64,000 nucleotides of DNA. Origin: a virus. Of this stretch, positions 2,047 through 64,000 are shown one piece after another (the stretch's first letter is position 1; every line of letters begins with the position of its first letter). The stretch is from positions 32,001 to 96,000 of IMG/VR virus record IMGVR_UViG_3300045988_072028. One strand, written 5' to 3'. Under the pieces are notes generated by a model. It did no database searches and had not been told where the DNA came from. It was given only the letters and a program-made list of their open reading frames with translations. A program made the translations under genes and the position numbers.

Positions 2047-3090
2047 ATGGCATATACATATATAAACAGGGAAATATATCCCAATATGTTGGTTTTAGAC
2101 GAACCTCTTGATGATAATTACGCTAAGGGTAATAGCTATGATGATTATATTAATGGCAATCCGATTCCATGGATAGAGCTGGGAGAGGAGCAATTGGCGT
2201 TCAAGGAAGCTAATCCTAAAGCCACGGTTAAGGAGATCATTGAGGCTAGGTTAGATGAGTCGAGGATTCTTAACGAGGAGAAATCAGCTAAATATGAGGA
2301 GCTGAGATCTTATGAGACTGAAAATCTCCATGAGTTTTTCTTGGATGATCAAGATATTTATATTCCTGAATATGACAGACGTAACGCTTTGGCTGATGGG
2401 GCTATAGTCGGTAAGATAACGATTATGGGCCTGGAGTTCGATATGACGGAAGGCAAGATCTTGATCGGGATGATGGATAAGTACGATAACGATCTGACAA
2501 CGGCGTTAGGGGACAAGCAAAAGCAGATCAGTATAGCCACTACCGTAGAACAGGTGAGAGCTGTCGATGTTCAGTCCGGCTATCCTGATAAGGTAAGTGT
2601 TACCACGGCGTACATCCAGCAACAGGCGAAGGAGAAGGATGCTCTCGATCCTCAAAAAGTAGCTGTCGAGTTTTCTAGGATGTTGGTTAATGACAAATCT
2701 TTATCCTTATCATCCAACGAGAAATTGGATGTTAAGGTCCTATTTCCTATATGGGGACAAGAAGGAGCGGAGTTCGGGCTATCCGTGGATACCGGATTTT
2801 GTCTTAGGGTAGTTAAGGAGGATACGGATATCCTTTACGAGGTTATCCAGCCTCATACGTTATCGTCAGAATGGGAGCCTGGACTCAGTACGGCCTCCTT
2901 ATATAAGGTTGTTGACAAGGAGCATGTCGGGACTATAGGTGATCCTATCCCGTATTTCCCTCCAATGGAGATATTCAAGGATAAATATTACATCCAGAAC
3001 GCTGATGTGTATAAGTGTACTAGGGATAGCGGAACTCCTCTCAGCCATAATCTACAGGATTTAATAGGTCTGTACGTGGAGCGGGTGTAG
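2047..3090 (+). CDS. tail-associated protein, possible carbohydrate-binding C-terminus
   Basis: 347-aa ORF 10 nt after the fibre gene. The C-terminal YEVIQPHTLSSEWEPG--ASLYKVV and a second Y--N-DVYKC segment resemble CBM5/12-like aromatic repeats seen at the ends of phage tail proteins. The functional call is weak. Confidence 0.5.
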   Translation: MAYTYINREIYPNMLVLDEPLDDNYAKGNSYDDYINGNPIPWIELGEEQLAFKEANPKATVKEIIEARLDESRILNEEKSAKYEELRSYETENLHEFFLDDQDIYIPEYDRRNALADGAIVGKITIMGLEFDMTEGKILIGMMDKYDNDLTTALGDKQKQISIATTVEQVRAVDVQSGYPDKVSVTTAYIQQQAKEKDALDPQKVAVEFSRMLVNDKSLSLSSNEKLDVKVLFPIWGQEGAEFGLSVDTGFCLRVVKEDTDILYEVIQPHTLSSEWEPGLSTASLYKVVDKEHVGTIGDPIPYFPPMEIFKDKYYIQNADVYKCTRDSGTPLSHNLQDLIGLYVERV

Positions 3091-3106
3091 CCGTAGTGCG
3101 ATCTAT

Positions 3107-3123
3107 CCCCCCCCCATATTTTA
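3107..3123 (+). promoter_or_regulatory. C9 homopolymer abutting an ATATTTTA box upstream of the BACON-like gene
   Basis: ATCTATCCCCCCCCCATATTTTA. C9 occupies 3107-3115. Confidence 0.45.
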
Positions 3124-3185
3124 TGGCTAACATTATATAAGTTATTTTTGGCATAATAAAAGGACATTTATAAATATATTTAAGT

Positions 3186-3845
3186 ATGGCATCACAAAAA
3201 TTCGGTTTCGTAACCGTAGACCCGGTATCAGGATCAGGAGATCAAGCGGTTAATTTCTCCGGTGATAAACACACCGGTCGTCTTCAACGCACTATCAACC
3301 TTACGGTCACCACGAACGGCGGGGCTAAGAAGGCGTTGGTAGTTAATCAGGCAGCGGCTGCTGAGGTGGTAAGATCAGACAGCCCTAACGCTTCCGTACA
3401 AAAGACAGGTGGTAATGTTACCATCACCGGTAAGTCTAACAGTACTAAGCTTACGTTCGCGGTCACGCCGGCTGAGGAGAACGGGCTTACGTTACAGCTC
3501 CCGGATAACTACACGGCGGCTGGAAAGACTACGGCTAACGGAGCGATTATCGCCGACGATCCCGGAGCCGCTGGCGAGTTCGTTTGGAGCATCACGATCT
3601 CGGACGTACCGGCCAACGTCACGATCGAGGAACTGACAGCTACATTGAAGGTAACTGCCGCTGGTGGCCAGACAGCTAACGTGACGGTAACGCAAGCCGC
3701 TGGAGACTCTACTATCGAGCTTGACAAGGAGACTATTAACTTGGATGTAAATGGTACTCAACAGACGGTTAACGTAACATCTAATGACAGCTGGACATGG
3801 ACGCAAGCTGCGGCTAGAACCGTATTGAGAATGATGGGACGATAA
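3186..3845 (+). CDS. BACON/Ig-like domain surface protein
   Basis: N-terminal DPVSGSGDQAVNFSGDKHTGRLQRTINLTVTTNGGAKKALVVNQ fits the BACON-type pattern (GxG...N....R..I.V......V.Q). C-terminal QTVNVTSNDSWTWTQ looks like the start of a second unit. Followed by a hairpin terminator. Confidence 0.6.
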   Translation: MASQKFGFVTVDPVSGSGDQAVNFSGDKHTGRLQRTINLTVTTNGGAKKALVVNQAAAAEVVRSDSPNASVQKTGGNVTITGKSNSTKLTFAVTPAEENGLTLQLPDNYTAAGKTTANGAIIADDPGAAGEFVWSITISDVPANVTIEELTATLKVTAAGGQTANVTVTQAAGDSTIELDKETINLDVNGTQQTVNVTSNDSWTWTQAAARTVLRMMGR

Positions 3846-3868
3846 TCAGTTTCTTTTCGCTTACTCAG

Positions 3869-3908
3869 ACCCCGATCGACTAAAGCCGGTTGGGGTTTAT
3901 TTGTTTTG
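3869..3908 (+). terminator. rho-independent terminator
   Basis: ACCCCGATCG / CGGTTGGGGT stem (two G-U pairs) followed by TTTATTTGTTTTG. Confidence 0.7.
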
Positions 3909-3909
3909 C

Positions 3910-3917
3910 TATCTTTG
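3910..3917 (+). promoter_or_regulatory. Bacteroidota-type -7 promoter box (TAnnTTTG)
   Basis: Exact TATCTTTG 25 nt before the ATG at 3942, immediately after a terminator. Confidence 0.5.
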
Positions 3918-3941
3918 CAATAGAACAAAAATAATACAACT

Positions 3942-4925
3942 ATGGCTAATGATTTGAATATTAATTGGAAGGACGGGGTAGGTGAGGTAACGGACCAGCC
4001 TCTGACCGTCAGCCCGGGAGCCGGGAGTGGGGATGCGGCGGTTTCCTTTGGCTCGGTAATGAATAAAGGACTTGACCGTACCCTTGAGTTGGAGATAACA
4101 ACCCCCAAAGGCGTTAAGAAGACGCTCACGGTGAATCAGGAGGGATGTAGGCAGGCTTATATCACGAGCGACGGCAAACGATGGCTGACTAGCGACAATC
4201 AGGTTTATGGCGTATTGAAATCAGACGCCCCGTGCGAATGTACCGATACGTGTCGTGAATGTACGCTTATTGGATTTGATTATGCCGGGGTGATAAGTGA
4301 ATCCGGTAACGACCATATATTGATAAGGCCGTTGCCTGACAACCCCACAAAAACGACAGTTATCAAATATTCTAAAGACATCTCCACGTTCAGGGATGCC
4401 GATAAACCCTTTGATAGTCCCGATTCATCCAATAAATGCAGGTGGAATAACGTGACGCACGTAACATTGACCAACAGGGCTTATATATACTCAAGACCTC
4501 AATTGACTCCACACGAGGTTCAATACGCCCAGGCGGAGTATTCCAGCATGCAAGGGGAGTATGTAAATAAGATAGAGCTATTGATAGTTCCTGGGACTTT
4601 CAATATATCCGTTCCGGCTATTTATTCCTTGACATCTCCTGATAGCAGGGGAAGAATGGATATAGTATTAGCCGAGAATGGCAATGACGAGAATATATCG
4701 TATGATATATCCAATTACAATGATGTCCTTTACGGACTCAATAAACTAGCGCAATGCGTGTTGGTCAATAAAACCAGAACCTCTTTATCTATAAGGTATA
4801 AGGATACGGAGGAAGTGGTTACCGTAAATAATGGGGTATCATATTCCCTAGATACGTATATAAGGGAGGATAATTCTACCGATCATGGTAAATTCAGGGA
4901 TATTGAGATACTTCCTATAGGATAA
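3942..4925 (+). CDS. BACON/Ig-like N-terminal domain protein with divergent Cys-containing C-terminal domain
   Basis: SPGAGSGDAAVSFGSVMNKGLDRTLELEITTPKGVKKTLTVNQ is paralogous to the N-terminus of 3186..3845. Preceded by an exact TATCTTTG box. Confidence 0.6.
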   Translation: MANDLNINWKDGVGEVTDQPLTVSPGAGSGDAAVSFGSVMNKGLDRTLELEITTPKGVKKTLTVNQEGCRQAYITSDGKRWLTSDNQVYGVLKSDAPCECTDTCRECTLIGFDYAGVISESGNDHILIRPLPDNPTKTTVIKYSKDISTFRDADKPFDSPDSSNKCRWNNVTHVTLTNRAYIYSRPQLTPHEVQYAQAEYSSMQGEYVNKIELLIVPGTFNISVPAIYSLTSPDSRGRMDIVLAENGNDENISYDISNYNDVLYGLNKLAQCVLVNKTRTSLSIRYKDTEEVVTVNNGVSYSLDTYIREDNSTDHGKFRDIEILPIG

Positions 4926-31591: not shown

Positions 31592-32617
31592 TTAATCTTT
31601 TTTATTCTTTCTTTTTGACTCATCCCAATTCGATGAATATCTGCATGTCCCTTGTTTATGAATTGAGAAATCGCACCAAAAACACAAGGGCTTGGGGCGG
31701 GGTTCAAGGCAGGCCGGCTGGCGTCCCATGAGGTAGCGTGTCTCGTATTTATACTCTTGCTTGACATCGTCCCAAACGTGAGCTTGATAGCTATTGATTT
31801 TATTTGTTTCGAAATCATACATATCAAGAAGAATATCATTAAGCTCCTTGACTGACCTCTCTACCTTTTCCTTATCTACCTTCACGTTTTGGTTATCCAA
31901 CATACGGGTAAAAAAATAGCTACACATATCTGGTAATACCTTATACTTCCTGTATATATAAAAGGCGTATATCGGATGCTGGAGATTGTGAAGCAATTTA
32001 TCCTTATCGAATAATTTTCTCCCGGACTTCCAGTCTATCGTATACATAGCTGTTCTGTCTTTTGTCTTATACTCACCTCTCCAGTCTACTGATCCTATGA
32101 TATGTACCTTATCGTACGTCACGCCATCCAAGGTAAGGGGCTTGGGCAGCTTATAAGGCAGGACGAAGCCCTCCTCCACGCCGGCCGGTCTCGACCCCCG
32201 GATTACCTTCTCCATTGGCGTAAGATCAGACCATGCCTTCTTATAATTGCCAGCAGCATCCTTCTCAAACAACCCCACAATCCATCTTATTAGCCTAGCC
32301 GCATGTTGCATAGACTCGATCTGGGATTTTACGCTATCAAAAGGAATCTTCTCTATATCCGCATAGTAATTGAAAGCCTTACTCATATCCTCATAAGAAG
32401 GTCTACATCCGTTCTTGAAGAAATACTCCATTGTCTGGTGGATAACCGTACCATATGACGTAGCCTCGTGCTTCTCCGTGGATCTGTGACCCTCCACGTA
32501 AGTCTTATACCACTTATACGGACATTGGACGAACGTGTCTATCTGTGAATAGGATGTGGCAAGAACCTTCTCTCCGTTTATGACCTTGCATAACAAATTA
32601 TTCTCCGGTATCACCAT
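31592..32617 (-). CDS. PD-(D/E)XK nuclease, Cas4/RecB-like with Cys cluster
   Basis: N-terminal SYSQIDTFVQCPYKWY, core IGSVDW...YTIDWKSGRK, and C-terminal CFWCDFSIHKQGTC (one N-terminal plus three C-terminal Cys, the Fe-S pattern). Confidence 0.7.
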   Translation of the reverse strand: MVIPENNLLCKVINGEKVLATSYSQIDTFVQCPYKWYKTYVEGHRSTEKHEATSYGTVIHQTMEYFFKNGCRPSYEDMSKAFNYYADIEKIPFDSVKSQIESMQHAARLIRWIVGLFEKDAAGNYKKAWSDLTPMEKVIRGSRPAGVEEGFVLPYKLPKPLTLDGVTYDKVHIIGSVDWRGEYKTKDRTAMYTIDWKSGRKLFDKDKLLHNLQHPIYAFYIYRKYKVLPDMCSYFFTRMLDNQNVKVDKEKVERSVKELNDILLDMYDFETNKINSYQAHVWDDVKQEYKYETRYLMGRQPACLEPRPKPLCFWCDFSIHKQGTCRYSSNWDESKRKNKKD

Positions 32618-53585: not shown

Positions 53586-54046
53586 AATCTTGCCATAAAA
53601 TAAATAAACATAAAATCTATTCTCTCTTTGTTATCATCCATCCTATGCCCGGTGATCTCAAAAACAACCCTACGCTTTTCTATAGTCTGTATATTATCTA
53701 ACTGAATAGCTATGTAAGGATATTTCATAACTTTCTCTCTATTGATGTTATACAAAATAGCGTTGACATCTTGCCTGCGAAAATACATATTTACCCCTAT
53801 ATAGCTGGCAACCAAAAGACATTCGTCTATTACCCCATCAGTATCGAATAGCAATAACATATCATCCTTCTCGATAGTATATTCCATATCAAGGATCTTG
53901 ATACGTTTGCTTCCGTCCTTCTTATCTGATATAAGAACCTCTATCATATCCTTATCAGTCGTAAGGATATAATACGCCTCGTCCTTTGTAATATTATTAC
54001 GAAGATAAGACAGTATCTCATCTTGTAATTTTATAATCTCGTCCAT
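53576..54046 (-). CDS. hypothetical protein
   Basis: First ORF downstream of GC-rich element A. Confidence 0.55.
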   Translation of the reverse strand: MDEIIKLQDEILSYLRNNITKDEAYYILTTDKDMIEVLISDKKDGSKRIKILDMEYTIEKDDMLLLFDTDGVIDECLLVASYIGVNMYFRRQDVNAILYNINREKVMKYPYIAIQLDNIQTIEKRRVVFEITGHRMDDNKERIDFMFIYFMARLCV

Positions 54047-54071
54047 GTTATTAGTATTTTATATTACCACG

Positions 54072-54140
54072 CCAAAGGAAAGAACGGCAGCCGACACCCG
54101 CAGCCTACCACGCCGTGACACCGCCGCCCGTTCCCCTTGG
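54072..54140 (-). repeat. GC-rich intergenic element A
   Basis: Minus sense reads CCAAGGGGAACGGGCGGCGG...GGCGTGG...GCTGCCGTTCTTTCCTTTGG. The termini are mutually complementary. Confidence 0.7.
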
Positions 54141-54142
54141 TA

Positions 54143-54472
54143 TTATTCTGGCACCTCTAATTTCCCGTAATAAGGATAAAAACAACCGTCTCGATAAACC
54201 GAATATCTGAGCGTTTTATCCTTTGCTTCATAGATGGAAACACAACCGCTGTTATAAGCGTTGGATAGTTCTTTTGCTACAAATCCGCCTATTCGCTTAT
54301 AGGTTTTAGGCGTATCCCTCAACGGCCTGCCTACATATATTTTTACTCTCTTGCACTTCTTGTCGCCTACGTATATATCCTTTCCACTAAGCTCCATTAA
54401 ATACATGAATCTCATATCAACCGATTTTAAATCCAACATTCCTCTATCTCTATCTCCATATGATCCGCCCAA
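54143..54472 (-). CDS. hypothetical protein
   Basis: Its stop lies 3 nt from GC-rich element A. Confidence 0.5.
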   Translation of the reverse strand: MGGSYGDRDRGMLDLKSVDMRFMYLMELSGKDIYVGDKKCKRVKIYVGRPLRDTPKTYKRIGGFVAKELSNAYNSGCVSIYEAKDKTLRYSVYRDGCFYPYYGKLEVPE

Positions 54473-54669
54473 TCACATCTATCAACGTCCTCACCATCCT
54501 CGAAGTAATAGTAAGCCCATACATGGACGCCTCCTACCTCTATACACCCATCACTTTTCCATTCTACCAACCCGTCTTGCCTTACCGCGTTGGTAGGCTC
54601 AGCCCCCAGCGACAGCAACTCATTTACTATACTACCGCCAAATACGTTTCTCGCTTCTTCTCTTGTCAT
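54427..54669 (-). CDS. hypothetical acidic protein
   Basis: First ORF downstream of GC-rich element B. Confidence 0.5.
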   Translation of the reverse strand: MTREEARNVFGGSIVNELLSLGAEPTNAVRQDGLVEWKSDGCIEVGGVHVWAYYYFEDGEDVDRCDWADHMEIEIEECWI

Positions 54670-54710
54670 ATCAATATCAGATTTTAATATTATACTACCG
54701 CCAAAGGAGG

Positions 54711-54770
54711 ACAGAGACGGACGACCAGCGGGGCCAACCCCACGCCATCGCCGCCCCCGTTTTCCCTTGG
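54711..54770 (-). repeat. GC-rich intergenic element B
   Basis: Minus sense reads CCAAGGGAAAACGGGGGCGGCGATGGCGTGGGG...CCTCCTTTGG. It shares the 5' block with elements A and C. Confidence 0.7.
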
Positions 54771-54903
54771 TTTCCTCCGCATCACCCTATACTAATAAAC
54801 AATATCCACCACCAATAACACCATACCCACCATCACTCACAACTACCTTGCCTTGACGGGGAACTCCTACCACTTGCAAACTTTTACATTTGATTGGAAG
54901 ATA

Positions 54904-55003
54904 CCCCTTGCTTGAAAGGCGTTTTCCTTGCTCGAAAGGTGTTTCCCTTGTTTGTTGGTGTTTTTTCTTGTTTGGAAAGGTTTTTCCTTGTTTGGAGGTG
55001 TCC
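54904..55003. repeat. five tandem 20-bp direct repeats (iteron-like)
   Basis: Units are CCCCTTGCTTGAAAGGCGTT, TTCCTTGCTCGAAAGGTGTT, TCCCTTGTTTGTTGGTGTTT, TTTCTTGTTTGGAAAGGTTT and TTCCTTGTTTGGAGGTGTCC. The CTTG core recurs at exactly 20-bp spacing. Confidence 0.85.
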
Positions 55004-55066
55004 CATCACGCAAATCCCAAATCTCCCTCGAAATTCCCACGAAAACCCAAGGCCTTCCGATACTTT

Positions 55067-55080
55067 GTTCCACGTGGAAC
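55067..55080. repeat. perfect 14-bp palindrome GTTCCACGTGGAAC
   Basis: Read directly. An 8-bp palindrome AAGGCCTT lies at 55049-55056. Confidence 0.8.
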
Positions 55081-55086
55081 GTTGAT

Positions 55087-55290
55087 TCAGTCTAGGATAT
55101 CGAGGTCTTTGTTCTTGATTGCCTTATATACTTGCCTAATACAATGTATTGATAATAAAACCAATAAAGAAACTATGATTATAGGCAGAGCGTCGCCCGT
55201 AGCTATAACGTACCGCCCCAACTCAAACGCCATATACCCACAAAACAAGGTGAGTACGAAATATATAAATACACCCATAAAAATATACAA
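55087..55290 (-). CDS. small membrane protein (two TM helices)
   Basis: FMGVFIYFVLTLFCGYMAF and LPIIIVSLLVLLSI. An isolated ORF within the non-coding region. Confidence 0.45.
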   Translation of the reverse strand: MYIFMGVFIYFVLTLFCGYMAFELGRYVIATGDALPIIIVSLLVLLSIHCIRQVYKAIKNKDLDILD

Positions 55291-55635
55291 TAAGTAACCA
55301 CGATTTTAAAATTGAACGCAAATAATACAATTAATTGAGTATCAATAAAATAATATATATCAACCCCTAGAGCTACCTCTAAGGAAAGACAAGCCTAGAT
55401 ATAGATAAAAAATATACAATAAGTACCGCCTATTATATACCTTTTAGGATCGATTCAAGCGCAAATCCATGCATAAGGGTACAATTCACCCGCCCGTATG
55501 GATATAGACATATACAAAATGATACATAATAAAGTATTTTACTTACATATTTATAATTAAGGCTTAAAATTTACCGCCTCAACACTTTTATATGTAAGCA
55601 AAACATATGATTATGCTGTCATTTTGTAAAATTAG

Positions 55636-55681
55636 ACACAAAAAAGCCCTTTCGTCCTATATCACTACAGTACGGAAGGGC
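55636..55681 (-). terminator. rho-independent terminator
   Basis: Minus sense reads GCCCTTCCGT...ACGAAAGGGC followed by TTTTTTGTG, just after the stop of 55714..55920. Confidence 0.7.
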
Positions 55682-55713
55682 ACAAACTTTAAAATCAAAT
55701 AAAAACAAACGAT

Positions 55714-55920
55714 CTATTGTCGCAATTTGTTTGCCATGTAACTAACATGTTTCCGCCTACATTTATCAGATTCCCTACTGCAATCTAATTTATTAGACTT
55801 GTATAGTTCTTTGGTAAGCTCAATATAAAACTCAATTTGAGACTTTCTTATAGCTTCTAAAGCCTTTTCTTTTTGAATAGATAGTTTCCTATTCAAATTA
55901 TCAAATTTCTTTTTGTACAT
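55714..55920 (-). CDS. small basic coiled-coil protein
   Basis: 68-aa ORF preceded by GC-rich element C and followed by a hairpin terminator. Confidence 0.5.
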   Translation of the reverse strand: MYKKKFDNLNRKLSIQKEKALEAIRKSQIEFYIELTKELYKSNKLDCSRESDKCRRKHVSYMANKLRQ

Positions 55921-55940
55921 AATATATTCATTTAATTACA

Positions 55941-56030
55941 CCAATAAGAATACGGCACGGCTATGAAGGCACAAAGCCGCCGTTATCGATACGGACAGCA
56001 GAGCACACCACGCCCGCCCGTCTCCGTTGG
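55941..56030 (-). repeat. GC-rich intergenic element C
   Basis: Minus sense reads CCAACGGAGACGGGCGGGCGTGGTG...TTCTTATTGG. Confidence 0.6.
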
Positions 56031-56387
56031 ATTTGTCCCTTTGCCCCGAACGAACGAAGCCAAATACGTACATACGTCACCCGTGATACGTACCGACAAG
56101 GCGTATTAAGTCCGTCAATTTAACCGCACTAAATACCCTTGTAAGGGTTGTTATTTGCTATCCGTACACATGTTAGGTATTTAAGCAACCCTAACATACG
56201 TCGTATTGATACATTAGCACGGAAATAACACCGTAATACACTCAATGCGTGCTACTCTCACAACGCACTAACATACGCCCTATACATGCGTATATACACC
56301 AACGTACCCCGTATTATAATACGGCCTATTAAGGAGACCTTAACGTACTAACCCTACTTGCAATAAGGCCAAAAGGATAACGGTACG
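55950..56387. repeat. dense cluster of ATACG/CGTAT (TACG-core) motifs
   Basis: ATACG starts at 55950, 55989, 56064, 56072, 56086, 56196, 56273 and 56319. CGTAT starts at 56102, 56202, 56289 and 56310. Several CGTAC/GTACG copies are also present, and there is a palindrome ATACGTCGTAT at 56196-56206. Confidence 0.8.
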
Positions 56388-56576
56388 TCTCCGGACTGGC
56401 AACGCACCCAAATCACATTGTTAAGCGGCGATCTATCTATACATGCTATCGATACCCTACCAGCATGTATATCCTTATTGCAATATGTTAAATAACTCGC
56501 TATTTTAGTCTGAGTCCAGTTGCGCGACGGGGACGCAATAGCATGCAACCACGACGGGCTATTATAGCCCGCCTAA

Positions 56577-57116
56577 TTATCTATCATTTTTAGGGTGCGT
56601 TAGGTAGTAAGTAATACATTTGGCTATCAAATTATATGTGTATCGCTTGATAGGTATAGCTACTTTGATGATACGTTTATCCGATCCATTAAACACCTCA
56701 TAGTAAGGCACGCTACCCGTGTCGTTGTATGCTATAGGCTCACAATATCCAAAGCGTTTATGCGTATTGCCTATTATAGCAATTTCGTTTATCTTATCCT
56801 CTGATAATTTCACATTCTTTTCCGCATCCTGCTTGTCGTAATATTCTCTTTCCACCTCTTTATATGCGCAAAAAGTATTGTCAATACGTGGAAGGATCTC
56901 TTTACAAAGTTGTATTACAACCTCTTTATCTTTAGCTAATGATACCAAAGCGGGTACAATTTCCTTATCTACCTTGATATCATTTTCCTTTAATATCTCA
57001 TTTATTTCTTTACCAGATTTAAAAAGTTGGGCCCATGCCTTTACGGCACCTGTTAACGTCTTTTCACTTGCCTTCTTTACCTCGCTTTGTACTTTAGTTA
57101 ACTCTTTATTTGTCAT
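56577..57116 (-). CDS. hypothetical protein
   Basis: 179-aa ORF transcribed divergently from 57634..58185. Confidence 0.55.
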   Translation of the reverse strand: MTNKELTKVQSEVKKASEKTLTGAVKAWAQLFKSGKEINEILKENDIKVDKEIVPALVSLAKDKEVVIQLCKEILPRIDNTFCAYKEVEREYYDKQDAEKNVKLSEDKINEIAIIGNTHKRFGYCEPIAYNDTGSVPYYEVFNGSDKRIIKVAIPIKRYTYNLIAKCITYYLTHPKNDR

Positions 57117-57339
57117 TAGATTTTACCCATACCTTTGGGATTTATATTGGCTTCTGGTACGCCAGTTTGTTAATATTGTTATCTCACATTGCAAATATAA
57201 TACATGTTTTATTGTCAAACAAATATTTTACAATAAAAATTCAACGATTATATATAATAAAACTAATCAAATGCAAATGTATATTAAAATATTGGTTTAT
57301 ATAATTGATAATCAACTATTTAAATGAAAAATAAGCATT

Positions 57340-57520
57340 CTTTTTTTCGGTTCGCTGATCGTTTGCCGTTCTTGTTTCCCGTCCTTCGTGGATTGGGGGG
57401 GGCTGGTCCAAAAACGGCAGCCCGGCCGGGCCGATTTCGGGGAGGTGGTCCGTCCCGCATATCCCCGCATATCCCTACATGTCCGGCGTCCCAACATATC
57501 CCATCTCTCATCCCCTAACG
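57340..57520. promoter_or_regulatory. GC-rich island in a divergent intergenic region
   Basis: Contains a stem GCCGTTCTTG (57365-57374) / CAAAAACGGC (57409-57418) enclosing a G8 tract (57395-57402). Also a 12-bp palindrome GCCCGGCCGGGC (57420-57431). Tandem 10-mers CCGCATATCC, CCGCATATCC and CTACATGTCC span 57455-57484, with CAACATATCC at 57492-57501. Confidence 0.6.
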
Positions 57521-57593
57521 ACTTTCTCATTAATTTTATTACATTTGCGATATAATTAAAACATAACATATTATGAATAAAGAAGTTGAATAC

Positions 57594-57610
57594 ATGGGGG
57601 GGGTATTTAA
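57594..57610 (+). promoter_or_regulatory. G9 homopolymer abutting a TATTTAAG box upstream of the plus-strand island
   Basis: ATGGGGGGGGGTATTTAAG. G9 occupies 57594-57602, 32 nt before the ATG at 57634. Confidence 0.4.
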
Positions 57611-57633
57611 GACCCCTCAGATAAGGAGGGGGT

Positions 57634-58185
57634 ATGTTTAGGCGCAGGACTTCTTCTCCCGGTAAGATCCACTACCGTGTTAATATAAACAAGAATATGT
57701 GTCTTGGCTTTGTAGATATATATATTGATGGGAAGCCATATCAACCTGGTTTTAACGGATCTTATCTTGATATATATCGCGATAAGAAGATAAAAACTAT
57801 AAGCATAAGTGGCCAGATATCATATCTAAATCCGAAAAATGAGTACAATGTTATTTTGGGCATAAGTGGAGGTATTATAGAGGGAACCCTTACGTATCAA
57901 TATAATTCGGGTATGCATTGCGAGTTGGCTAATAAGGTGATATACGGGAATAGGATAACTAATTTTGTTCCTGTAACGGTGATAGAAGATCCTGGGAAGA
58001 TCATTAATTTCACTTACAGATCTGAATTACATACTCAGGTTTTAGATGAAAGTTATGTAAGTTGGGATGGTGATTATGTATTAAACGATAATTGTATAGT
58101 AACTGATCTTTGTTCGGGATGTGAATCTTATGCCTATGGGAAAAGTTCTCATGGTAACTATCGAGTAACGGTAAGGATAGTGTAA
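57634..58185 (+). CDS. hypothetical beta-rich protein
   Basis: 183-aa ORF. First gene of the plus-strand island, 32 nt after a G9 tract. The start could be the internal ATG (MCLGF). Confidence 0.5.
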   Translation: MFRRRTSSPGKIHYRVNINKNMCLGFVDIYIDGKPYQPGFNGSYLDIYRDKKIKTISISGQISYLNPKNEYNVILGISGGIIEGTLTYQYNSGMHCELANKVIYGNRITNFVPVTVIEDPGKIINFTYRSELHTQVLDESYVSWDGDYVLNDNCIVTDLCSGCESYAYGKSSHGNYRVTVRIV

Positions 58186-58187
58186 TC

Positions 58188-58258
58188 CCAAGGGAAGGAG
58201 GGAGACCTCGTCCTTCCGGGCCTCCCCGTCCTACCACCGCCCCTCACGTTCTTTTTGG
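58188..58258 (+). repeat. GC-rich intergenic element D (plus orientation)
   Basis: CCAAGGGAAGGAGGGAGACC...CCGCCCCTCACGTTCTTTTTGG. It has the same terminal pattern as A-C, oriented with local transcription. Confidence 0.55.
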
Positions 58259-58322
58259 CTTCTCCATGTATTGTCTTTGACCGGATATCAAAAATTCATA
58301 TCTTTGGAACAAAACTACAATC

Positions 58323-58577
58323 ATGTTTAGAGACATACTACATAAAATAAAGATCTTCTTCTGCGATGACGATATCGAGAAGATAAATGTAAGGGATAGT
58401 ACGGTTATCCGCAACAACGAGATACATAAGATGTATGATGAGATACTTAATGAGCTAGGTGATTTGGCCACTGTCGTGTCTAGGAACTACGTGTATGGCA
58501 GGATAAAGGACAGGACGGGATTGAGCATCCGTCATATCAGCAGGATAATAAACCATACTAAAGTTGAGGAGATATGA
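58323..58577 (+). CDS. small putative HTH protein
   Basis: C-terminal RIKDRTGLSIRHISRIINHTK is helix-turn-helix-like. Confidence 0.45.
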   Translation: MFRDILHKIKIFFCDDDIEKINVRDSTVIRNNEIHKMYDEILNELGDLATVVSRNYVYGRIKDRTGLSIRHISRIINHTKVEEI

Positions 58578-60991: not shown

Positions 60992-61119
60992 ATAGATTAC
61001 ACACGAAAAATAGAACTGAAAGCGATCTTAAGCACGTAAGATTTTATTAATTCCCGTAGGCTGTCTACCGGTTATCGTTAATTACCGACCTGCGGGAATA
61101 TGTTTAAGAAAACACCATG

Positions 61120-61195
61120 TGGGGAGTGGGGGAATCGAACCCTTATCCACGCTACGATTAGGAATCGTAAATTCTATCCGTTAAATTAACTCCCC
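61120..61195 (-). tRNA. tRNA-Arg (anticodon CCT)
   Basis: A hand fold of the minus-sense 76 nt gives a 7-bp acceptor GGGGAGT/ACTCCCC, a D stem ATTT/GAAT and an anticodon stem TACGA/TCGTA with loop TTCCTAA. The T loop is TTCGATT. The T stem has only 3 GC pairs plus two A-C mismatches, and the variable loop is 8 nt. Confidence 0.6.
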
Positions 61196-61278
61196 TTTAA
61201 GCGTCCTGATCCTCCCGGACAAGGACACTACATAAATCTAAACTCTAAACCTAATGACAAATTCTATTAATCCAACTG

Positions 61279-61352
61279 TGGACCCGGCCGGACTTGAACC
61301 GACAACCTACTGGTTATGAGCCAATTGCTCTTACCAATTGAGCTACGGGTCC
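61279..61352 (-). tRNA. tRNA-Met or tRNA-Ile2 (anticodon CAT), elongator type
   Basis: A hand fold of 74 nt gives acceptor GGACCCG/CGGGTCC, a D stem GCTC/GAGC and an anticodon stem ATTGG/CCAGT with loop CTCATAA. The T arm is GTCGG-TTCAAGT-CCGGC. The G1-C72 pair argues against an initiator. Confidence 0.85.
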
Positions 61353-63745: not shown

Positions 63746-64000
63746 TCAAAAAGGTAGGTCACTATCGTCTCCAAAAGGAGGATATTGAGGAGGTTGTTGC
63801 TGACCTCCAAAAGAAGGAGCTTGGGCTGTCTGAGGCGGAGCCTGCTGGTATGATGGAGGAGGCGTTTGCGATGGAGCCTGCGTAGCGTATGACGGTGGGG
63901 GCGTTTGCGTTATAGCCTCACCAGCGTTGTTTTGGCTTGGAGACTGAACCGGTCTCACGCCATCCGCTTTAATACTTTGGATATATTTATTAAGTACCTG
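63746..64000 (-). CDS. ssb: single-stranded DNA-binding protein, C-terminal part (5' end outside the window)
   Basis: Gln/Pro-rich linker ending in the acidic tip GDDSDLPF, typical of SSB tails. The frame stays open to the window edge beyond the GTG at 63958. Confidence 0.55.
   Translation of the reverse strand, partial: QVLNKYIQSIKADGVRPVQSPSQNNAGEAITQTPPPSYATQAPSQTPPPSYQQAPPQTAQAPSFGGQQQPPQYPPFGDDSDLPF

Follow-up and report, generated by a model that had tools for sequence, protein, structure and literature searches.

A low-coding region around positions 54047-58322 of the 64,000-nucleotide window analysed here (positions 32,001 to 96,000 of the IMG/VR virus record IMGVR_UViG_3300045988_072028) contains what is, to judge from compensatory base changes among its relatives, the gene for a large, ornately folded non-coding RNA. 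The gene fills a gap of 656 nucleotides (nt) at 55921-56576, and the RNA would measure about 520-650 nt with its flanking hairpins. It follows a gene for a 179-amino-acid (179-aa) protein, and, on comparison of distant lineages, protein and RNA are inherited as one module across the Epsilon crAss-like phages. The original prediction, made from the letters of the window, had described this largest gap as a stretch with a TACG cluster and palindromes, and the RNA gene went unrecognised. The region as a whole can be explained with good confidence as an accessory or early expression island, probably close to the packaged genome end, that would hold the RNA gene, its operon and a set of ancillary elements.

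The source phage is, by its protein matches and collinear relatives, a crAss-like phage of the Epsilon group; its genome would measure about 150 kb, of which the window covers 64 kb. The 2148-aa open reading frame (ORF) at 6452-12898 matches virion proteins of crAss-like phages, best that of csAssE-Sib (35% identity over the full length) and then that of Cellulophaga phage phi17:2; an RNA-polymerase subunit of crAss001 is matched more weakly. The genome of csAssE-Sib, also spelled crAssE-Sib (OR575929.1; L290 in the comparison set), belongs to another genus and is the one annotated genome in GenBank. In IMG/VR, contigs of 145-160 kb that are collinear with the low-coding region number in the hundreds (75-98% identity), and together with the ORF matches they place the phage in the Epsilon group. 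Members of this group have genomes of about 150 kb and lack a DNA polymerase (PMC7886860; PMC11054128). They account for some 13-18% of the crAss-like-assigned reads in human gut viromes, and there are no cultured members (PMC7886860).

The structured RNA

On the minus strand, the gap is bounded by the 179-aa gene, whose stop codon is at 56577, and by a 68-aa gene, whose ATG is at 55920. An alignment of the gap from 53 distinct relatives, 75-96% identical (alignment A1), was folded over the whole interval with RNAalifold, giving 152 pairs in 21 helices, 55 of the pairs with double compensatory changes. The core of the structure, at 56037..56551 on the minus strand (A1 columns 69-608), is about 515 nt long and consists of some 18 helices arranged in three multi-branched domains plus hairpins. 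Conserved loops on stems whose bases have been swapped can be seen by eye in the A1 helices. Standard pairing reaches 98.8%, and the covariation score is 0.294. Sliding the 3' partners by 1-3 columns lowers these values to 30-50% and 0.03-0.07. None of 500 shuffles reached the observed pairing and covariation values, a control that is optimistic since the A1 relatives form one clade with shared ancestry; the slid-partner control is stronger, and so is a test on the distant relative L282.

Added to the alignment by a sequence-only method, L282 (56% identical and outside the structure inference) retains 105 of 141 pairs, where slid controls retain 45-65, and it carries 26 double changes, where they carry 8-14. 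On the opposite strand, several invariant G-U pairs would become A-C mismatches; since they fit only the minus strand, the RNA is assigned to it, the strand of the flanking genes.

No conserved reading frame runs across the RNA: the longest ORFs are 60-90 codons, indels break the frame and codon periodicity is absent. Between 54670 and 57633 only three ORFs are genuine, as had been proposed, and they occupy 951 of 2964 nt (32%). In all three, relatives differ mostly at third codon positions, with substitution counts by position of 648/368/1951 for the 179-aa gene (56577..57116, minus strand), 305/214/1027 for a basic 68-aa protein downstream of the RNA (55714..55920, minus strand; ORF intact in 76 of 81 distinct relatives) and 123/95/281 for a hydrophobic, membrane-like 67-aa protein (55087..55290, minus strand), which has a homologue in the relative MT836733 (L001). 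The other ORFs in the gaps (a 68-aa GTG ORF over the repeats, a 64-aa ORF within the RNA and a 64-aa ORF over the GC-rich element E4) are not conserved. The non-coding DNA shows no sign of decay among relatives, with identities of 99% at 55400-55449 and 90-94% at 57150-57299. This is at least as high as in the genes (66-83% for the 179-aa gene).

That the gaps are decayed or misread protein genes, whether pseudogenes or products of sequencing errors or stop-codon reassignment, is scarcely credible. Stop-codon recoding is common in crAss-like phages (PMC7886860), and in GenBank the homologous RNA of OR575929 is covered by the annotation of a 95-aa "hypothetical protein". However, the same non-coding layout is kept in more than 130 independent assemblies, and the substitutions in the gap are compensatory in base pairs and lack codon periodicity. 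Relatives do not encode a conserved protein whose frame is broken here: only 3 of 23 to 15 of 58 variants keep a candidate ORF whole, and the ORF lengths differ by non-multiples of three. Long late genes are open throughout in the standard code, the 2148-aa ORF among them.

A search of Rfam 15 across 53900-58500, both at the gathering threshold and at E<=5, found nothing at the RNA and two chance-level matches elsewhere in the stretch. Five homologous gaps from distant lineages had no Rfam match at E<=1, and a tRNA and tmRNA search of the gaps was negative. Judged by the lack of an Rfam match, the RNA appears to be previously undescribed, a distinction drawn without comparison to the 10,006 unnamed candidates in a catalogue of viral structured RNAs (PMC10690425). 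The TACG cluster is real, with 8 copies in 426 nt against a mean of 3.5 per kb, and is the maximum of the window by a narrow margin, as 7 are reached elsewhere.

Directly 3' of the 179-aa stop codon is a separate hairpin (56554..56572, minus strand; folding free energy, dG, -15.3; z -4.5). Among relatives it is replaced by four unrelated sequences, each of which still forms a hairpin. It may mark the 5' boundary of the RNA, or it may be a processing or stability hairpin.

The 179-aa protein and the proposed operon

The 179-aa protein has no match in Pfam or PHROG, and a search of both with ten neighbouring proteins gave no significant match either. Its AlphaFold model is a confident one, with a predicted local distance difference test score (pLDDT) of 91.9 and a predicted template modelling score (pTM) of 0.84. 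A fold search with the model against the PDB and BFVD, a viral structure library, found no match (best E about 0.5, template modelling (TM) scores below 0.25), and the predicted fold appears to be novel.

Full-length homologues of the protein were found at 25-38% identity by exhaustive search. In the five distant ones whose contigs were looked up (28-38% identity), the gene is in each case followed by a gene-free gap on the same strand, of 634, 652, 710/782, 544 and 633 nt. A search for related loci in IMG/VR with one distant homologue, P0128, gave no matches. With the RNA alignment as query, nhmmer matches the gap of L282 at E 7e-43. A covariance model (R1) was made from the central 171 nt of the RNA core; its E-values are roughly calibrated. 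Its best match per source falls inside the gap and on the right strand in L282 (8e-19), L287 (2e-4), L289 (6.5e-4) and L288 (0.012), and in csAssE-Sib it lies at positions 745-627 on the minus strand (0.005), so that five of the six lineages tested have their best match within the gap or interval. The skeleton common to these RNAs reads GGC-[hairpin]-GGGGU-stem-AUCAAnACG-[hairpin]-ACGG.

The genome of csAssE-Sib also encodes a homologue of the 179-aa protein (39% identity to P0135). Its RNA core lies inside the coding sequence of WOZ57218.1 (OR575929.1 556-843), the 95-aa "hypothetical protein" mentioned above, which is probably a spurious gene call; in practical terms, the RNA region has been misannotated in the only genome of the group annotated in GenBank. 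The gene downstream of the RNA is not constant among distant lineages, encoding 95, 64, 56 or 102 aa, whereas both the RNA core and the upstream protein are retained. This joint inheritance suggests that the protein and the RNA act together.

In distant lineages, the RNA gaps end in a tRNA-like module (L283:6118-6200, L288:1510-1580 and L287:1270-1345), in which a T-arm with the loop UUCGAUU (GGUUCGAUUCC) is stacked on an acceptor-like stem. The module could be a processing signal for RNase P/Z. In the clade of the window its place is occupied by the GC-rich element E3. True tRNA genes, for tRNA-Arg(CCT) and tRNA-Met(CAT), are found at 61119-61352 on the minus strand, about 4.6 kb from the RNA, and csAssE-Sib and L289 have tRNA clusters about 5 kb from their protein-RNA modules.

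Promoters of the host type were searched with the Bacteroidota sigma-A motif TTTG-N18-22-TAnnTTTG (TTTG at -33, TAnnTTTG at -7). There are four perfect matches in the 64 kb, against 0.95 expected, and two of them fall in the low-coding region. One, TTTG-N20-TATATTTG at 57192..57223 on the minus strand, lies upstream of the 179-aa gene in the block that is 90-94% conserved. The other, TTTG-N19-TATCTTTG at 58276..58306 on the plus strand, lies upstream of an 84-aa gene. A scan for E. coli-type sigma-70 promoters stayed at chance level (26 against 21.9). The word GGCGGTA / TTTGGCGG is enriched in the window (20 against 4) and was considered as a phage promoter word; it was rejected, as it occurs on both strands with several copies inside coding sequence. 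After the 68-aa gene is a predicted intrinsic terminator (55640..55685, minus strand), a hairpin followed by U6 with a dG of -17.8 and a z of -3.3, in which three covarying pairs are found among 141 relatives.

With the promoter motif upstream and the U6 hairpin after the 68-aa gene, the promoter, 179-aa gene, RNA, 68-aa gene and terminator likely constitute a single transcription unit. The RNA would be co-transcribed with both genes from 57223-57192 and transcription would end at 55685-55640. The suggestion that the region is a regulatory hub is partly borne out by these elements: it has two of the four perfect Bacteroidota-type promoter motifs of the window, one terminator backed by covariation and a family of hairpins confined to it. 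Transcription does switch direction at 57117-57633, where the units are divergent, as had been noted.

No promoter was detected within the RNA gap itself, and the gap lies inside an apparent operon. It could then be a cis-acting element of the messenger RNA, either a giant 3' untranslated region (UTR) of the 179-aa gene or a leader of the 68-aa gene, or else a self-splicing intron, the Epsilon phages having been reported as intron-rich (PMC7886860). Together these alternatives are quite unlikely. The 179-aa stop codon and the 68-aa ATG are both conserved, and the 30 nt before the ATG contain frame-breaking indels of 1-3 bases; because of this non-triplet variation no exon can join across the gap. 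Models of group I and group II introns do not match. A leader dedicated to one gene is made less likely by the change of downstream gene among distant lineages, in which the RNA core remains with the upstream protein.

Several points weigh against an independent RNA that works with the protein. Transcription, the ends of the RNA and its processing are all inferred for this phage, as are the formation and timing of a ribonucleoprotein (RNP). Binding of the protein to the RNA is deduced from gene order, which would also fit a long structured 3' or 5' UTR. In the most distant lineages the R1 matches are weak (E 2e-4 to 0.012), and in L283, where R1 gives an E of 1.2, the likeness comes from motifs recognised by eye. 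The proposal that protein and RNA act together would nevertheless be met most simply by an RNP made early in infection. That they form a dedicated RNP confined to the Epsilon crAss-like phages and encoded next to the genome terminus, with a protein of novel fold and an RNA of a new large ornate class, is a tentative idea, less probable than its absence. If true, such a particle might serve in host takeover, in counter-defence, or, like the pRNA of phi29, in genome packaging or ejection.

The pRNA is a structured non-coding RNA of a phage, made from an early promoter and encoded close to the genome end, which are points of likeness to the RNA described here. It differs in being only about 174 nt long and unrelated in sequence. 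Phage phi29 packages protein-primed DNA, and nothing in the window links the RNA to a portal or terminase.

The closest parallel may be found within the Crassvirales themselves. Phage phi14:2 has two long intergenic regions among its early genes that are transcribed early, at levels above most mRNAs, and persist late in infection; they were called long non-coding RNAs (lncRNAs) of unknown function (bioRxiv 10.1101/2020.03.07.982082). The claim that no such region had been described thus gives way to a precedent. In both phages long intergenic stretches lie among small genes near the conventional genome start (Drobysheva et al., also Nature 2021), and in the phi14:2 genome (NC_021806) about 1.7 kb at 2905-4601 is free of genes. 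Neither nhmmer nor the covariance model found similarity between the RNA of the window and this non-coding region. Expression was shown for phi14:2, where structure and partner protein are undescribed, whereas here structure and linkage to a protein are established and the RNA is known from its sequence alone. An early RNP would parallel the abundant, persistent lncRNAs of phi14:2, and the RNA of the window may offer a structural handle on those unexplained transcripts.

Other large RNAs offer more distant comparisons. GOLLD and ROOL (RF01998, RF03087; cryo-EM in PMC12286853) are likewise large (500-800 nt) and multi-domain, and they covary strongly; they are often carried by phages or prophages near tRNA genes, and their function is unassigned. 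In the window the tRNA genes are about 4.6 kb away, and distant members of the family end in the tRNA-like module. In contrast to GOLLD and ROOL, the present RNA has no Rfam match at E<=5 and is tied to a specific upstream protein gene. Ro60 (TROVE) proteins with their Y RNAs or YrlA combine a protein with a structured RNA that has a tRNA-like domain, and a TROVE protein is an early gene product of the crAss-like phage crAss001 (PMC10136315). However, neither TROVE nor any other Pfam family matches the 179-aa protein, and its model matches no known fold; Y RNAs are several times smaller than the RNA of the window, and the tRNA-like 3' module is absent from the clade of the window.

Within the dark matter of Epsilon phages, this gives a defined unit that is open to testing: a conserved RNA that exceeds 500 nt, whose fold is upheld by dozens of compensatory changes and which is tied to a single protein of unknown fold. 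The RNA adds a candidate to a very short list of large ornate RNAs of bacteria and phages (GOLLD, ROOL, OLE and raiA), several of which build RNA-only assemblies.

Genome terminus, repeat array and origin

Between the operon terminator and the 67-aa gene is a conserved, AT-rich non-coding block (55440..55640) that is a candidate terminus or packaging start by synteny. For crAssE-Sib, the genome start was determined with PhageTerm (p 1.5e-22), with a single start point and no terminal repeat or packaging mode reported (PMC11054128). In OR575929 the terminator behind the homologue of the 68-aa gene is followed, some 55 nt later, by position 1; a further 190-290 nt on are twin CTTATTGTAT(T)n motifs, which match 55405-55425 and 55279-55296 of the window. 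The twin motif (TACTTATTGTATATTTTT on the minus strand) is found here at 55279-55308 and 55408-55437, nearly invariant among relatives, with one of its copies directly adjoining the beginning of the 67-aa gene; the motif is kept as a pair in the other genus. It is plausible that the terminus of the phage lies at about 55450-55630, and the AT-rich block would then be its likely packaging start. This position is carried over from another genus by synteny, across DNA that can barely be aligned, which speaks against it.

A further possibility is that a physical genome end or packaging signal is the defining feature of the region, with the low coding density a side effect, and with the tandem array described below and the AT-rich block as sites for terminase recognition or bending. 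This is compatible with an RNA gene and is a serious contender, somewhat short of an even chance. The start of crAssE-Sib maps to the syntenic non-coding block, immediately beyond the operon terminator, and the genome of crAss001 has long terminal repeats (PMC10136315). Against this, alignment of the two genera within the AT-rich block is limited to short motifs, and the report on crAssE-Sib (PMC11054128) gives one start point without terminal repeat or packaging mode.

The tandem array (54890..55000) was found by Tandem Repeats Finder (TRF) and a repeat finder. Its 20-bp repeats, which had been pointed out before, are confirmed: TRF reports a period of 20 at 54905-54954 and copies continue to 54990. 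The minus-strand unit is about 20 nt (CAAGGAAAAACCTTTCCAAA) or 10 nt (CCAAGGGAAA) long, and its A-tracts are in helical phase. A-tract-phased repeats are typical of the bent DNA at packaging sites such as SPP1 pac and lambda cosB, a point in favour of a terminus, and the array, too, is probably bent. It is hypervariable. The segment 54730-55110 ranges from 182 to 738 nt, with 130 distinct variants among 202 loci; the number of units lies between very few and about 30, and their sequence is not constant either. The array would be a slippage-prone repeat.

Contigs of relatives end in the array from both sides, and one contig of 154 kb has both its ends there with an overlap of 119 nt. Contig ends cluster again at 57400-57620, where an insertion hot spot in E4 and variable poly-G tracts are found. 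Because the ends come from both sides and one circular contig overlaps itself, they are best taken as assembly breaks at the array and at poly-G/E4, and they were rejected as evidence of a terminus. The proposal that the region holds the termini of the genome is therefore left with the PhageTerm start that maps by synteny to 55450-55630, and without the contig ends. Many partial IMG/VR contigs of 85-96 kb have one end in the low-coding region, which points to a second recurrent assembly break about 90 kb away. The variable repeat and the poly-G tracts are, in practice, predictable break points in assemblies of Epsilon crAss-like phages.

Both G8 tracts that had been listed are present. The one at 57393-57400 varies from 6 to 9 G among relatives. 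The other, at 57596..57603 on the plus strand, lies about 30 nt upstream of a 183-aa gene and varies from 7 to 15 G, and several contigs end at 57603-57622. The length variation could reflect phase variation or an artefact of sequencing or assembly.

A replication origin had also been suggested. It would be either the region as a whole or the array with the AT-rich block, the 20-bp repeats being iterons for a phage initiator and the AT-rich DNA an unwinding element. Direct repeats phased at 10/20 bp do adjoin AT-rich, highly conserved non-coding DNA, as at lambda ori and P1 oriR, and the unit is within the iteron range of 17-22 bp. Epsilon phages have a minimal replication set without a DNA polymerase (PMC7886860), so that a defined origin would be needed for the host machinery. 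Even so, an origin is unlikely. In the 64-kb window, which leaves the skew minimum of the whole genome outside view, the cumulative GC skew keeps falling to the end; there is only a small local rise at 57-59 kb, which coincides with three plus-strand genes. No DnaA-box-like site (with at most one mismatch) was found between 53158 and 58405, and no initiator-like gene is adjacent, the neighbouring proteins having no family matches. A hypervariable copy number, from very few units to about 30, and a changing unit are unusual for iterons.

GC-rich hairpins, cassettes and other repeats

Five GC-rich islands, at 54066-54146, 54694-54788, 55975-56052, 57376-57488 and 58182-58265, confirm that the region holds GC-rich elements, here called E1 to E5. 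E1, E2 and E5 align with their counterparts in MT836733 as one family, of which E3 and E4 are degenerate relatives. The consensus of the family on the minus strand is ACCAAGGGRAAC-GGGCGGCGG...CCYTTTGG. An nhmmer profile of the family, run over the whole 64 kb, matches E1, E2 and E5 only (next best E 0.26).

E1 (54063..54149, minus strand; dG -38.6, z -3.4; nhmmer E 4.8e-17) lies directly 3' of the stop codon of a 109-aa gene, and its inner hairpin with a T-rich tail was flagged as terminator-like. E2 (54694..54778, minus strand; dG -47.3, z -4.0; nhmmer E 4.8e-19) is followed by TTTGGCGGTAGTATAAT just before an 80-aa gene. As minus-strand RNA both fold into hairpins of about 70 nt. E5 (58182..58262) comes after the 183-aa plus-strand gene and is also matched on the minus strand (nhmmer E 2.3e-15), so that all three share one orientation, E5 included although it follows a plus-strand gene. 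The three are nearly invariant, hence there is almost no covariation to read.

E3 (55960..56036, minus strand) is on the 3' side of the RNA and upstream of the 68-aa gene. It has the word CCAA(A/C)GG..GGGCGGG in common with E1 and E2 and varies blockwise among relatives, and its predicted fold is not significant. E4 (57376..57525) contains a terminator-like hairpin on the minus strand (57433-57418) and the insertion hot spot at 57459-57525, where relatives hold 0-1.2 kb of extra sequence; in L001 this is a whole 290-aa gene cassette.

The E elements sit at gene ends, and the extra cassettes in MT836733 each bring their own E copy. With moderate confidence, the elements can be regarded as conserved terminator or boundary hairpins that delimit small, swappable cassettes. 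They lack a clean U-tract, their tails being T-rich, and "terminator" is a reading of shape and position, which counts against that view. The arrangement resembles "moron" cassettes, which carry their own terminators, and also bidirectional intrinsic terminators: close relatives differ in which small accessory genes they possess, and a GC-rich hairpin with A-rich and T-rich arms comes after each gene. The E hairpins differ in belonging to one sequence family of about 70 nt that is nearly invariant and keeps one orientation whatever the direction of the gene, again without a clean U-tract. As palindromes in the same orientation at the 3' ends of cassettes they also recall integron attC sites; this was rejected, from the sequence alone, as the core sites mismatch RYYYAAC/GTTRRRY and no integrase is nearby. 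The 10-nt array unit, CCAAGGGAAA, recurs as the 5' arm of the E elements.

The 183-aa gene (57634-58185, plus strand) shows substitutions of 197/99/113 by codon position, without a third-position bias. The N-terminus of its product (MFRRR...) is common to the 290-aa paralogue inserted alongside in MT836733 (L001 6140-7012), and this pattern suggests cassette swapping or diversifying selection.

A few other repeats were seen in the window. The word TTTGGCGGTAGTAT occurs twice, 63 nt apart, at 54629-54642 and 54692-54705; one copy is just upstream of the 80-aa gene and the other within its coding sequence. A 135-nt tandem repeat (2.3 copies, 76% match) is found at 740-1046, inside a 639-aa tail-fibre-like ORF (117-2036), and a 39-nt tandem repeat of about 2 copies is present at 63837-63927, near the end of the window.

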